The notes beneath the pieces were generated by a model. That model saw nothing but the letters and a program-made list of their open reading frames with translations. It ran no database searches and was not told the DNA's origin. Both the position numbers and the translations under genes were made by a program. Source: Escherichia coli (GTDB lineage Bacteria > Pseudomonadota > Gammaproteobacteria > Enterobacterales > Enterobacteriaceae). Taken from it: a DNA stretch of 64,000 nt. Position 1 is the first letter of the stretch; the number at the start of each line of letters is the position of its first letter. Below are positions 24,409-27,750 of the stretch, in pieces. The stretch is from assembly GCF_044647545.1 (NCBI RefSeq), contig NZ_CP172818.1; one strand, given 5' to 3'.

Positions 24409-25536
24409 TCACAACGCTACTTTGCTCCATCCTTTACCTCGATCATCATGATAACGATCGGTTTGTTGTTGTGTTTTATGACCAAGTAGTTTTTGTGTGT
24501 CTAACCCCTGTTCTTTATACAGACGTTCAGATAAAGACCTTTGCTCATGGAATGTCGCAGGTGAACCCTCTCCCCAGTCAATTCTTGCTAAATCTCTCGC
24601 TTTACTAAAATTCATCGTCAATGTATTGGCTTTAACCTGCGCTCCGCGCTCTGCTTGTGAAGTTGAACGAAAAAAATGCACTAAGTATGCACTGACTGCA
24701 TAGTCACGGCAGCGGGCTACTACATCGCGTAAACTCCAGTTAATCGCATTGAGGCGAAGAGAAAGAGGAATTGCGATTTTGCTCCCGGTCTTTTCCTGAA
24801 TGACATGAAGATGATCATCCCAAATATCGCTAAATTTCATACGCGAAATATCACCTAACCGCTGACCAGTAACCAGCGCTAACAGCATGGCATTTCCCAT
24901 GTAACGATGAGTAGCGTCTGCGATATCGAAGATTTTTTTCCATTCTTCAAGGCTCAGCCGTTGTCGGGTAATTTTTCTTCTTGGTTGTTTAGTGGCTAAT
25001 GCTGGGTTATAGCCAGGAGGTACTTCTCCGTAGTGCTGCGCCTCTTTGAAAACATCAATCAGGACGGAGCGAACTACTTGTGCCATTCTTGGCCGCCCAG
25101 CGGCGATATACTCATCAAGCAATTGTGCTATATCTCTGACATCAACGGCTGAGATCAACTTCATTCCTGCTCGTTCTCTGAGCAAGGATACTGGTTTAGC
25201 TTTTTGTTTATAGGTGTTGAGTCTTATATCACCACTTTTAAGCCTGTCATCCTGGATCGCTTGATAGCGATCTAACCAGGTTGACGTTGTGATAGCCTTT
25301 CCTTTGCTGGTTGCGATCCTGTCACTGATAGCCAGAATCTGCCGGGTTCTTTGTTCAGCCAGGCGAGTGTTGGCCTCAGTGGCAATAGCGATAGCTTCAG
25401 CTTCGTTTGTTCCCAAAGCATGGAATTTTCCTGTCACTGGATGCTTATACCGCCAATAGACTTTATTTACCTTCCTACTATAAAGCGGATATAAGTTAGG
25501 GACTGAAACATTATTCTTACGCGGTCTGGCTGCCAT
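24409..25536 (-). CDS. intE: Tyrosine integrase IntE
   Basis: 375 aa. Catalytic pattern R (GQRLGD), HxxR (HEQRSL) and H...Y (GHKTQQQTDRY). Confidence 0.94.
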   Translation of the reverse strand: MAARPRKNNVSVPNLYPLYSRKVNKVYWRYKHPVTGKFHALGTNEAEAIAIATEANTRLAEQRTRQILAISDRIATSKGKAITTSTWLDRYQAIQDDRLKSGDIRLNTYKQKAKPVSLLRERAGMKLISAVDVRDIAQLLDEYIAAGRPRMAQVVRSVLIDVFKEAQHYGEVPPGYNPALATKQPRRKITRQRLSLEEWKKIFDIADATHRYMGNAMLLALVTGQRLGDISRMKFSDIWDDHLHVIQEKTGSKIAIPLSLRLNAINWSLRDVVARCRDYAVSAYLVHFFRSTSQAERGAQVKANTLTMNFSKARDLARIDWGEGSPATFHEQRSLSERLYKEQGLDTQKLLGHKTQQQTDRYHDDRGKGWSKVAL

Positions 25537-25762
25537 TACTCAAAATCCGTTGCAAAAGTAATGAGTCATTTTTCTTGATTACAGGTGTTACCAACTCCCC
25601 AACTAACTCGGCGTCCTCACGCACTCGCCATAACCGGCCTTGTTTCATGGCCGGTGGACAAAATAAATTCTGCTTAGCATAACGACGCAATGTGGACACA
25701 CTTGGAGGATTACTTCTGTATTTTTCAGCAGCCCATTCTTCAAGAGTTAACATTTGAAGCAT
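25517..25762 (-). CDS. xisE: Excisionase XisE
   Basis: 81-aa small HTH-type protein. 20-nt overlap with the intE start. Confidence 0.85.
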   Translation of the reverse strand: MLQMLTLEEWAAEKYRSNPPSVSTLRRYAKQNLFCPPAMKQGRLWRVREDAELVGELVTPVIKKNDSLLLQRILSNGSQTA

Positions 25763-25829
25763 ATGCGATCACCTTATTACTACACTAACTGCTTAGTCTC
25801 ATCATATCGACCCTGCAAGGCCGATTAGT

Positions 25830-26120
25830 TTCTCCACAAAACAGAGAAGAACACCTGCGGCGGCAGCCGCCCGGATGGATTGGGTTATGAGCCCGTCGTC
25901 CGGTGATGCTCTTCTCTGTTTTGTAAAAAGGACGGTACCAGCCTGAAGCAAGGGTACAAACTGGTACCGCCAGGACTACACACAGCATAAAGTTGTGGTG
26001 CCGGGTGCCTCCCGGTGCCTGGCGAAGGTTGCACACCAGACGGGTGGGTATCCACAGAAGGTCGACTGTCAGCCTCAACCTTAACCCGCGTGCGCTGAGC
26101 CGCATTCACCACAACGCTAA
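25830..26120. other. GC-rich, stem-dense non-coding island (candidate structured RNA or leader)
   Basis: Perfect pairings at 25836-25850/25910-25924 (15 bp), 25933-25941/25961-25969 (9 bp), 25992-26000/26107-26115 (9 bp) and 26025-26031/26076-26082 (7 bp). Only overlapping low-quality ORFs are present. Confidence 0.3.
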
Positions 26121-26228
26121 GGATTCTCTTTGGTTGAAAATACTTAGCTGTTATGTGCCTGTCTTTTCACCACTTCAGGCTCGGTGGTATGCTGGAGTTC
26201 TCACACAGCCAGCAAGCAAGGAAACTTA

Positions 26229-26570
26229 ATGAACCAGTTTTATGTTCACGTTCGTCTATTTGAAGACACAGCCGAACAGACCAAAAAATTTGAAGAATTA
26301 ATGCTTAACTTTCTGTACCAGAAAACAGTTAAAGAGTCTGACGATAGCTGCTGCAGACTGATTCCAGAGGGATATATCCTCAAAAGTACAATGAACTGCC
26401 AACAAATCCTTGATCAAACATTTTCAATTGCTAACAGTGCCGGTGTTGACGCAAATATATTTGTCTGTAAATTTGAACAAAGCGCATGCTTACTTCCGTC
26501 TGCTTCCTTAGTTGGTAACGATTTCGTTCATTACGATCTTACGCCTAAGCCCATCAAGCTCGATTCTTAA
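26229..26570 (+). CDS. ymfI: Prophage protein YmfI (function unknown)
   Basis: Track ORF trimmed to ATG 26229 (MNQFYVHVRLFED), 113 aa. Confidence 0.7.
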   Translation: MNQFYVHVRLFEDTAEQTKKFEELMLNFLYQKTVKESDDSCCRLIPEGYILKSTMNCQQILDQTFSIANSAGVDANIFVCKFEQSACLLPSASLVGNDFVHYDLTPKPIKLDS

Positions 26571-26816
26571 AGCCTTAACCATTGTGTCGTGATAAACACG
26601 GCTCACCTTCTCTCCATTGCATGGCAGAGGGGTGAGTGTGTTAGCCATGAAATTCATGAACTCGGTTCGACCAGGGGCTTGCGCCCCGCAAGTCTTTAAT
26701 GCCTGTTTTGCTAACAAAATGCGGGCCTCAGTGCCTGCATTTGGCTCTATCTGCTGCAAACGTTTAGCGTCTTCCAGCAACAATGCGATCACATGCTTCA
26801 AATTCTGCTCATTCAT
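26508..26816 (-). CDS. ymfJ: Prophage protein YmfJ (function unknown)
   Basis: 102-aa ORF. Its 3' end overlaps ymfI convergently by 63 nt. Confidence 0.7.
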   Translation of the reverse strand: MNEQNLKHVIALLLEDAKRLQQIEPNAGTEARILLAKQALKTCGAQAPGRTEFMNFMANTLTPLPCNGEKVSRVYHDTMVKALRIELDGLRRKIVMNEIVTN

Positions 26817-26923
26817 CTATTCTCTCCACTGAAATCATCCGCTAACGAATCATCCCGGTCTTCGTACGTACCGGGCGGGCTACTTCGTGGGCGTCCTGCC
26901 TGTTTGTTGTTTCTCTTGGGTAC

Positions 26924-26952
26924 ATTATGTATCTCAAAGGTACATTGTCAAG
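26924..26952 (-). promoter_or_regulatory. Near-consensus sigma70 promoter reading toward ymfJ
   Basis: Minus strand: TTGACA (26952-26947), 17-nt spacer, CATAAT (26929-26924). Two ATGTACC repeats overlap it. Confidence 0.55.
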
Positions 26953-26953
26953 T

Positions 26954-26978
26954 ATAAAAAAACCTGCCGAAGCAGGTT
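26954..26978 (-). terminator. Rho-independent terminator of cohE
   Basis: The minus strand reads aacctgc-ttcg-gcaggtt followed by a T-run, directly 3' of the cohE stop. Confidence 0.75.
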
Positions 26979-26990
26979 CATAAACATTGA

Positions 26991-27665
26991 TTAGGCTTTG
27001 ATTTTGTATCTTCTTGGTTTTCCTGAGAAAATCACAGTACCAATTATAGAGCAATTACCGTTGATCTTAATGTAAGGCTCAGGCCAGTTTGGGTTTAACG
27101 CTTTGAGATAACGCTGTGTCCCATCTTCTATCAACCTTTTGAAGGTGGTTTCACCTGTATCGTGCATCAATGCAATAACGTCGTCACCGTGGCAGGCAGG
27201 TACTTCAGGATCGACAAAAATCATGTCTCCCGGGCGGTACTCATCAATCATTGAATCACCTATTACCCGCAAGATATAAGTCATTTCCCCACAGGGTACA
27301 GGGCAGGGATACGTTTCTGCTGTGCTCAAATCAACCTCAGAATATCCAACTTCTTTCCATGCTCCGGCCTGTACCCATGATATGACAGGGACTAATGTGA
27401 TTTGTTTATTAGTGATTGAAACATCAGGTTTTTTTGTGATGTTCGTTGTCTGGTGTTCTTGATCGAGCCATCCTACAGGCAGGTCGAAACATTTTTCGAT
27501 GTGTCGTGCCATGCTGTCACCGATATTTTTAGTAGCACCATCTCCCATAAACCTGCTGGTCTGGGTTGGCTCGCGATCAATCATAGTGGCAAAGGAAGAA
27601 TTCCCGCCAACACCATCTCTCAGTTTTCTGGCGTTAGACCGCCGGATGTCATGGATTGTTTTCAT
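26991..27665 (-). CDS. cohE: CI-like prophage repressor CohE (HTH + S24 self-cleaving peptidase)
   Basis: 224 aa. Cleavage-type Ala-Gly in WVQAGAW. Ser/Lys dyad motifs GDSM and FKRL. Confidence 0.9.
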   Translation of the reverse strand: MKTIHDIRRSNARKLRDGVGGNSSFATMIDREPTQTSRFMGDGATKNIGDSMARHIEKCFDLPVGWLDQEHQTTNITKKPDVSITNKQITLVPVISWVQAGAWKEVGYSEVDLSTAETYPCPVPCGEMTYILRVIGDSMIDEYRPGDMIFVDPEVPACHGDDVIALMHDTGETTFKRLIEDGTQRYLKALNPNWPEPYIKINGNCSIIGTVIFSGKPRRYKIKA

Positions 27666-27680
27666 AACGAAATTAAAACC

Positions 27681-27701
27681 CTTGTACCGTTAAGGTACAA
27701 G
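27681..27701. promoter_or_regulatory. Operator-like palindrome (TGTAC-N7-GTACA class)
   Basis: cttgtacc-gttaa-ggtacaag, with perfect 8-bp arms, in the cohE/croE divergent region. Confidence 0.6.
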
Positions 27702-27731
27702 TATCTTGAAGGTTCATTTCAATCATGTAAT

Positions 27732-27750
27732 ATGTACACCGGAGGTACAT
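27732..27750. promoter_or_regulatory. Operator-like palindrome (TGTAC-N7-GTACA class)
   Basis: atgtac-accggag-gtacat overlaps the croE Shine-Dalgarno GGAGG. Confidence 0.6.

Follow-up and report, generated by a model that had tools for sequence, protein, structure and literature searches.

A predicted STnc100-type structured RNA in the xisE-ymfI spacer of an e14-type prophage of Escherichia coli

What is encoded in the spacer between xisE and ymfI of an e14-type prophage of Escherichia coli, which is rich in G+C and dense in potential stems? The spacer occupies positions 25763-26228 of the window, by which is meant the whole 64,000-nucleotide (nt) stretch of contig NZ_CP172818.1 that was analysed. 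An earlier note, made from the sequence alone, proposed that the spacer specifies a structured RNA, either a long leader (of xis-int or of ymfI) or an independent noncoding RNA, and this proposal is supported by covariation in a large RNA family, by a covariance-model match and by published RNA 3' ends of strain K-12. The strand, left open in the note, is the minus strand, that of xisE and intE. The spacer is indeed GC-rich (G+C fraction 0.52-0.57 over 25800-26200, versus 0.40-0.47 in xisE and intE and 0.39 in ymfI), and an inverted-repeat search recovered all four complementarities that the note had described. These do not form a single pattern: two of them (25992-26000 with 26107-26115, and 26025-26031 with 26076-26082) are the closing stem and the pseudoknot of a structured core, one (25933-25941 with 25961-25969) belongs to an intrinsic terminator, T1, and the 15-bp pair 25836-25850/25910-25924, which grows to 25 nt at 84% complementarity, belongs to a long hairpin, LH.

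The core (25992-26115; like the other parts of the element, on the minus strand) is 124 nt long and consists of five helices, P1 to P5, around one junction, together with a pseudoknot. The order in the family is P1, of the form (N)GUGGUG...CACCAC(N), then the junction AAU, P2, P3, P4, the dinucleotide CA, P5 and the 3' strand of P1. In the window, the 5' strand of P1 (GUUGUGGUG, 26107-26115) is followed by the conserved AAU (26104-26106) and pairs with the 3' strand CACCACAAC (25992-26000). The P2 hairpin, GCGGC-UCAGC-GC(A)CGC (26088-26103), has a bulged A and a loop of the form UNNGC. Just after it comes the 5' strand of the pseudoknot, AAGGUUG (26076-26082), which pairs with CAACCUU (26025-26031) in the loop of the P4 hairpin (GUCUGGUG/CGCCAGGC, 26017-26041). 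P3, recognised in family alignments, is a short helix that closes a variable insert. The P5 hairpin, CCGGG-AGGCA-CCCGG (26001-26015), lies within the 22-nt motif CACCGGGAGGCACCCGGCACCA. The minimum free energy fold of the core recovers P1, P2, P4 and P5.

The family was collected by means of a 20-nt motif (CCGGGAGGCACCCGGCACCA), with which viral contigs and one genome per species were scanned. Exact copies of the P5 motif are present in at least 120 viral contigs and at least 120 species genomes, and the genera among the matches listed are Escherichia, Shigella, Enterobacter, Klebsiella, Raoultella, Kosakonia, Citrobacter, Buttiauxella, Trabulsiella, Pantoea, Erwinia and others. There are 271 unique occurrences in phages and Enterobacterales among the matches listed, most of which share only the motif and GGUGAAU with the window. 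In an alignment of 54 sequences, 91.4% of the cells of P1, P2 and P5 are paired, as opposed to 39-49% when the partners are slid by one to three columns, and double-sided changes occupy 68 cells, as opposed to 31 ± 9 in shuffles (0 of 500 as high). The search motif fixed P5 and the inner five pairs of P1, which show no variation for that reason, and comparative information resides only in outer P1, P2, P3, P4 and the pseudoknot. The outer P1 pairs covary among the 54 representatives, with GC in 26, AU in 23 and GU in 4 at one pair, and CG in 18, UA in 13 and UG in 9 at the next. P2 retains the shape of its canonical counterpart (CCCCC-UGUGC-GG(A)GGG), with G-C in place of C-G at three of the five pairs; U-A pairs occur in a third variant, and 97.4% of all P2 cells are paired.

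Because MAFFT misregisters P3 and P4 between subtypes, and RNAalifold recovers only P1, P2 and P5, the pseudoknot and P3 were assessed by an alignment-free parse and by permutation. A pseudoknot of at least 5 bp is present in 87 of 90 unique cores, with many different sequences: AAGGUUG/CAACCUU in the window and, elsewhere, CCAGUC/GACUGG, AUCAGCA/UGCUGAU, CUGGUGU/ACACCGG and AGACUGACAAA/UUUGUCAGUCU. Its mean run is 6.47 bp, versus 4.59 ± 0.17 bp when the loops are permuted (36 distinct loops; 0 of 2000 permutations as high), and the short base helix of P3 also exceeds permutation (3 of 2000 as high). In the window a local hairpin (26082-26075/26065-26058) would compete with the pseudoknot. The core fold is conserved and covarying. 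Compensatory changes, which the earlier note had suggested looking for in related prophages, were found for P1 and the pseudoknot, and also at one position of the T1 stem and one pair of LH.

Folding energy adds to this picture for the region as a whole. For the minus strand of 25790-26200 the folding energy is -176.5 kcal/mol, versus -133.6 ± 5.7 in dinucleotide shuffles (z -7.5; 0 of 100 as low), and the plus strand has a z of only -3.6, so that the structure signal is specific to the minus strand. Piece by piece, z is -5.1 for T1, -7.3 for LH and -6.4 for a hairpin (H0) directly 5' of P1. The core alone has a z of -2.4, and support for it is therefore mainly comparative.

To which family does the core belong? 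A permissive Rfam scan aligned 25922-26137 with the entire STnc100 model (RF02076, positions 1-206 of 206) at 39.5 bits, with an E-value of 7.9e-7 in a 1.2-kb scan and 4.2e-5 in the whole window. The gathering score of the model is 47, and a scan of the window at gathering thresholds did not return the element. The earlier note recognised no named RNA family; the element does resemble STnc100 and its relative PasD, although it scores under the Rfam threshold. Besides alignment to the whole model, it has in common with STnc100 the closing stem P1, with GGUGAAU on its 5' and CACCA on its 3' side, the invariant hairpin CCGGGAGGCACCCGG (P5 of the window is identical to the Rfam consensus, in which P5 is written in upper case as highly conserved), the shape of P2, the pseudoknot that joins the P4 loop to the strand after P2, an intrinsic terminator on the 3' side, and a location in a prophage. 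The pseudoknot is not drawn in the Rfam consensus structure line beside the match. The sequence of the first hairpin in Rfam, CCCCC-UGUGCG-GAGGG, is not conserved in the window (GCGGC-UCAGC-GCACGC), where the helix, the bulged A and the UNNGC loop are kept by means of double-sided changes. Apart from its lower score, the element differs from STnc100 in having P2 strands GCGGC.../...GCCGC rather than CCCCC.../...GGGG, in lacking a sigma-70 promoter at P1, in lying in an early-left operon rather than standing alone in a late region, in possessing the additional long hairpin, and in the long loop and only five U of its terminator.

The core is predicted from its sequence to belong to the STnc100/PasD superfamily of prophage RNAs, within a divergent subfamily here called 'type 2'. 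Other type-2 members occur in ST64B, Buttiauxella, Lelliottia, Pseudescherichia and Pantoea; P1, P2, P5 and the pseudoknot are kept in different sequences, the pseudoknot in every type-2 relative inspected. All type-2 relatives that were scored gave 31.9-39.5 bits, each below the gathering score. The genome of phage SfV contains the same STnc100 match in one copy and none elsewhere, including its PR operon, and the element is likewise the only one of its type in the window. The only other significant Rfam match there, and the only one above a gathering threshold, is a C0299 RNA (RF00119; 55326-55404, plus strand; 107.7 bits).

STnc100 is a prophage small RNA (sRNA) without known function that is abundant in vesicles of Shiga-toxin strains and is encoded just downstream of stx2B (PMC12370729). 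Zhu, Shabalina and Storz describe it as structurally homologous to the Hfq-bound sRNAs PasD1 and PasD2 of enteropathogenic E. coli, which are abundant in Hfq RIL-seq (sequencing of interacting RNAs after their ligation) and are located in lambdoid prophages beside Q and lpxR in the late region (10.64898/2026.05.13.724894). The element of the window, which is not in such a late region, is likened to PasD by description, not by sequence. PasD has no established target or phenotype of its own; by analogy it is the most informative guide to a possible mode of action of the superfamily, namely Hfq-dependent base pairing.

Among canonical members, 58 of 174 have, by a strict rule, a sigma-70 promoter that ends about 7 nt before P1, and 20-60 nt beyond P1 there is a strong terminator; these features mark them as stand-alone genes. 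Under the same rule, none of 61 type-2 members has a sigma-70 promoter abutting P1. Among individual phages, 933W carries a canonical STnc100 (L133:3878-4137; 207.7 bits) just downstream of stx2B, convergent with and abutting the anti-sRNA AsxR on the opposite strand. Fels-1 has two or three tandem copies of STnc100-type RNAs between Q and the holin gene (L134:3496-5251), and several genomes of Superficieibacter (L270, L271) also have tandem copies. Phage P1 contains a core-only, sub-threshold STnc100-like element (L136:2904-3024; 37.8 bits) between dmt and a gene for an SPFH-domain protein, upstream of ban.

On its 3' side the core is followed by T1 (25925-25971), an intrinsic terminator with a 15-bp stem (25971-25957/25945-25931), of which the 9-bp complementarity 25933-25941/25961-25969 is the centre, and with a U-tract at 25929-25925 (CUUUUU). 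T1 lies 163 nt before xisE. Its stem shows a compensatory change from GGUACC to GGUGCC/GGCACC in two loci (L178 and L214), and in ST64B-type phages the stem in front of the same U-tract is unrelated (GUCGGCGUC/GACGCCGAC). LH (25836-25924) begins directly after the U-tract and has a 21-bp base stem and a branched top. In 19 variants 98.7% of the base-stem cells are paired. A single pair differs on both strands (A-U in place of G-C), and three one-sided changes leave the pairing intact; the stem varies little, and the search pattern kept part of the 5' arm constant. Between LH and the first open reading frame (ORF) is a small hairpin (25806-25825), the stem of which is kept in the variants GACCUUGCAGGGUC and GCCCCUACGGGGGC. 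H0 (GCUAAGUAUUUUC/GAGAAUCCUUAGC, 26116-26148) stands on the other side of the core.

T1 and LH together behave as a separable module: at 64 of 122 loci they follow either no core or cores that share P1 and lack the P5 motif, and some type-2 cores have neither T1 nor LH. The cores without the P5 motif are of two types, one about 260 nt upstream of its T1 (L150) and the other at L005:5176-5400. These other structured cores occupy the same slot and have a P1 stem of the form GUUGUGGU(G)AAU...CACCACAAC; neither type has a match in Rfam, and they look like interchangeable cassettes.

Is the minus strand transcribed? Term-seq of strain MG1655 recorded three minus-strand RNA 3' ends within the region without induction (Adams et al. 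2021; PMC7815308, supplementary file 1). Position 1201195 corresponds to window position 25925, the last U of the T1 U-tract; 1201257 corresponds to 25988, 4 nt past the 3' strand of P1; and 1201423, a strong end, corresponds to 26155, after a 35-bp segment at the border of the element. The distances between successive ends, 62 and 166 nt, agree exactly with the sequence. These ends indicate that T1 terminates transcription in vivo in K-12 and that the core protects a 3' end, and the minus strand is thus transcribed in the uninduced K-12 lysogen. A 68-nt minus-strand RNA, ECS171 (Shinhara et al. 2011; PMC3175480 supplement), corresponds to 26224-26157 and ends at the third Term-seq site; it overlaps the start of ymfI and its ribosome-binding site in antisense orientation and could be an antisense regulator of that gene. 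In a Reg-Seq preprint (PMC12132413), intE-xisE-ymfH is taken to be a single operon, with a start site that is active in gentamicin only. The prophage sRNA svsR/co293 of NC-SV and e14 (PMC12803456) was considered and is a different, 77-nt RNA from the cI 3' end or near icd.

The genes around the spacer suggest where transcription of the element would begin. The prophage adjoins icd, with the order lit, intE (24409-25536, minus), xisE (25517-25762, minus), spacer, ymfI (ATG at 26229, plus), ymfJ (26508-26816, minus), cohE/ymfK (26991-27665, minus), which encodes a LexA-like repressor, and croE. Between cohE and ymfJ, after the intrinsic terminator of cohE (26979-26960), there is a minus-strand PL-type promoter that matches 11 of 12 consensus positions (-35 TTGACA at 26951-26946, a 16-bp spacer, and -10 CATAAT at 26929-26924). 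It is overlapped by two operator-like palindromes, TGTAC-N7-GTACA (26908-26924 and 26928-26944), three matching copies of which lie between cohE and croE (27683-27749). This is a PL/OL arrangement, and the promoter between ymfJ and cohE is predicted to be controlled by the repressor. Leftward transcription is predicted to pass through ymfJ, antisense to ymfI, and then through the element and xisE-intE, with the core beginning about 780 nt past the promoter. A promoter scanner found nothing in the spacer itself; read by eye, H0 holds a weak -10-like TATTTT (26142-26137) with AAGACA 17 bp upstream (26165-26137 in all), which lies 22 nt upstream of P1 and is not conserved in other type-2 members. 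No boxA (YGCUCUUWA with at most one mismatch) was found on either strand of 24518-27044, and the annotations of e14 and SfV list no N homologue.

The element travels as a mobile module (25798-26193) that is 99.2% identical to SfV and is also found in SfIV, phage Kati and many E. coli prophages. By megablast, all or part of the spacer has matches in 2,784 of 5,426 complete E. coli genomes, with at least 80% query cover in 1,497. In SfV, S88, 0H24 and strain 117 the module lies, on the early-left strand, between the repressor side and the first early-left gene, followed by yfdP, yfdQ, yfdR and so on to xis and int, and ST64B has it in the same position of the early-left unit. It is 3 kb from xis-int in SfV; in e14 it abuts xisE directly, in place of yfdP-yfdT. 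Its right border is the 35-bp segment (26154-26188, minus), which is 94% identical in lambda, P22, HK620, ST104 and others and in P22 (29650-29684) lies just upstream of PsieB, between ral and sieB. This segment was considered as a terminator and rejected, having no U-tract and an ordinary folding energy (z -0.06), despite the strong RNA 3' end. The early-right regions of SfV (L012:27603-27791), ST64B and relatives (L135, L005, L150) contain isrK and C4 RNAs, which are components of the P1/P7-type immI antisense immunity system.

The spacer has also been taken to encode a protein, since ymfH is annotated in K-12-type genomes. The earlier note listed three overlapping ORFs, of 106 and 75 amino acids on the minus strand (25785-26112) and of 78 amino acids on the plus strand (25993-26229). 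All three are present, and its judgement that they are spurious is upheld: none has a Pfam family, their Arg/Pro/Gly-rich products are as expected of GC-rich noncoding DNA, variable sites are distributed 21/22/31 over the codon positions, and the conserved nucleotides track RNA helices rather than codons. The K-12 copy (L002:3001-3464) is 92.5% identical to that of the window, with many changes in LH and in T1, including its loop, and its P5 is damaged by a 1-nt deletion and a G-to-A substitution (CACCGGG-GGCACCCGACACCA); the window copy is intact at every conserved position. YmfH of K-12 starts in the frame of the 75-amino-acid ORF, switches to the 106-amino-acid frame at the P5 deletion, and switches again to a third frame, that of a 49-amino-acid ORF, at an indel in the T1 loop. 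The annotated ORF therefore exists because of indels in the K-12 copy, and such frame hopping marks it as not a conserved gene. In RefSeq the name ymfH is given in K-12-type genomes, most other records inspected have a 'frameshifted hypothetical protein', and some have no annotation. The 106-amino-acid frame is open in most of 42 unique copies, the one other point in favour of a small protein, be it YmfH or the product of this ORF; a coding function is nevertheless scarcely credible. On these comparisons, ymfH of K-12 is an artefact of a decayed RNA copy and not a conserved protein.

It is only slightly more credible, and still very improbable, that the inverted repeats act at the DNA level, as cruciforms or as sites for Int, Xis, integration host factor (IHF) or the repressor. 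In favour are the density of the repeats and their proximity to xisE-intE in e14, and the earlier note had mentioned a recombination or regulatory scaffold, a suggestion that finds no support: the module is 3 kb from xis-int in SfV and relatives are found far from recombinases in the late operons of Stx phages and Fels-1, and in phage P1. Furthermore, the G-U pairs and compensatory changes matter only in RNA, one strand is favoured, the operator motif TGTAC-N7-GTACA is absent from the spacer, and the RNA 3' ends coincide with predicted RNA features. Another thought is that the module functions in intact SfV- or ST64B-like phages and is an inert relic here. The e14 prophage is defective, having lost the early-left genes between the module and xis so that the module abuts xisE, and in the K-12 copy the most conserved hairpin has already suffered a deletion and a substitution, alongside many changes in T1 and LH. 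Nevertheless, this is improbable for the window, the copy of which is intact and 99.2% identical to that of the viable phage SfV, and even in K-12 the element is transcribed, with termination at T1.

Among known systems, the element is comparable in position to the PL leaders of lambda and P22, with their tL terminators, RNase III site in the N leader, and sib. The position relative to repressor, PL/OL and xis-int is the same, the 35-bp segment is found beside sieB/ral, terminators lie between PL and int, and a long duplex forms a candidate RNase III site. In contrast to those leaders, no N gene and no boxA were found here, and lambda and P22 share only the 35-bp segment, with no counterpart of the core. 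P5 is similar in size to lambda boxB (5-bp stem, 5-nt loop), which is a resemblance only. The put elements of HK022 are also structured RNAs in an early-operon leader of a lambdoid phage without N, with terminators downstream before xis-int. However, put is about 70 nt long with two stem-loops, whereas the core of the window has 124 nt, five helices and a pseudoknot, and its canonical relatives are stand-alone, terminated genes. A blastn-short comparison of the HK022 early region with the spacer gave only chance words of 9-11 nt, and identity with put was rejected on the grounds of no similarity to putL or putR, a different architecture and one copy per phage. A conserved multi-helix domain closed by P1 is reminiscent of a terminating riboswitch, but the spacer between P1 and the terminator is unrelated in sequence and 20-60 nt long, the terminators are not homologous between clusters, and T1 is absent from several type-2 members.

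What, then, does the RNA do? It is probably a prophage regulatory RNA that is released at T1 and acts in trans, T1 serving to insulate xis-int and LH as a processing element. The core and T1 would be released together as a stable RNA of about 125-210 nt, which would act in trans as STnc100 and PasD may do, RNAs that according to the literature co-purify with Hfq. In the lysogen, T1 would stop unrepressed leftward transcription from reaching xis-int. The 21-bp, near-perfect duplex of LH may be an element for RNase III-type processing or stability that uncouples the RNA from the downstream mRNA. Several points weigh against these proposals. Cleavage of LH by RNase III is purely conjectural, and five U are short for a typical Hfq-binding tail. 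The RNA has no established promoter, given the contrast between type-2 and canonical members in promoters abutting P1 and the weakness and lack of conservation of AAGACA-17-TATTTT among type-2 members. The transcript data come from the K-12 copy with its damaged P5 and not from an intact copy. Type-2 cores without a terminator, in Lelliottia (L251:2315-2443), Pseudescherichia (L252:4084-4214) and Buttiauxella (L297:3699-3814), are leader-like: the first early-left ORF has its Shine-Dalgarno sequence 10-60 nt after them, and their P1 is extended to 15-22 bp. To our knowledge, no trans target is known for any family member.

The leader-like cores point instead to a cis-acting leader of the early-left operon, either a put-like antiterminator that would carry RNA polymerase past T1 and subsequent terminators, or a sensor of a ligand or protein that sets read-through, translation or stability of the first early-left gene. 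The arrangement of these cores, found in several genera, is one sign of this; others are that type-2 cores are always within the early-left unit and upstream of its first ORF, that they have no promoter of their own beside P1, that terminators lie between PL and xis-int where neither an N gene nor boxA was found, and that RNAs recognised by their shape typically have a pseudoknot and conserved junction nucleotides. Against such a leader there is no sequence similarity to putL or putR of HK022, and whereas each early operon of HK022 contains a put site (PMC9378689), SfV contains one copy in all, outside its PR operon. The canonical relatives, with a promoter and a strong terminator of their own, lie upstream of lysis genes, where constitutive antitermination would be harmful. 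With a spacer of 20-60 nt between P1 and T1, and with T1 optional, sensor and expression platform do not overlap as a terminating riboswitch needs, and T1 does terminate in K-12, albeit with a damaged core. Orientation relative to neighbouring ORFs, co-oriented downstream in 113 of 159 cases, is too crude a test to separate action in cis from action in trans. On balance a cis-acting leader is unlikely, though worth keeping in view. Slightly more doubtful is its specific form in which the core decides whether polymerase from PL passes T1 and so controls the early-left genes and, in e14, xis-int and excision; such a device might bind polymerase directly, as a functional analogue of put, or sense a factor. 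If it did exist, the STnc100 superfamily, found in about half of E. coli genomes, would constitute a new and widespread class of RNAs that control phage transcription, and the L150- and L005-type cores that share P1 would be interchangeable specificity cassettes.

Whether the RNA acts in trans, as is favoured here, or in cis, the family itself is already known and its function is not. What goes beyond the Rfam model and the cited papers is the assignment of e14 'ymfH' to it, the type-2 subfamily, the pseudoknotted five-helix architecture, and the position at the head of an early-left operon with T1 and LH as add-on modules. For the best-studied bacterial genome, this means the removal of a phantom gene, ymfH (b1142), in place of which there is a decayed copy of a structured RNA. 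For the family, it means that STnc100-type RNAs are more than simple hairpin sRNAs, having in common a five-helix, pseudoknotted core with invariant junction nucleotides, and that in SfV-, ST64B- and e14-like prophages the early-left operon is headed by a subfamily that falls below the Rfam threshold in every member scored. About half of complete E. coli genomes carry the module, which also occurs across the Enterobacterales, and its position between PL and xis-int raises the question of how lambdoid prophages without N silence excision and then switch it on.

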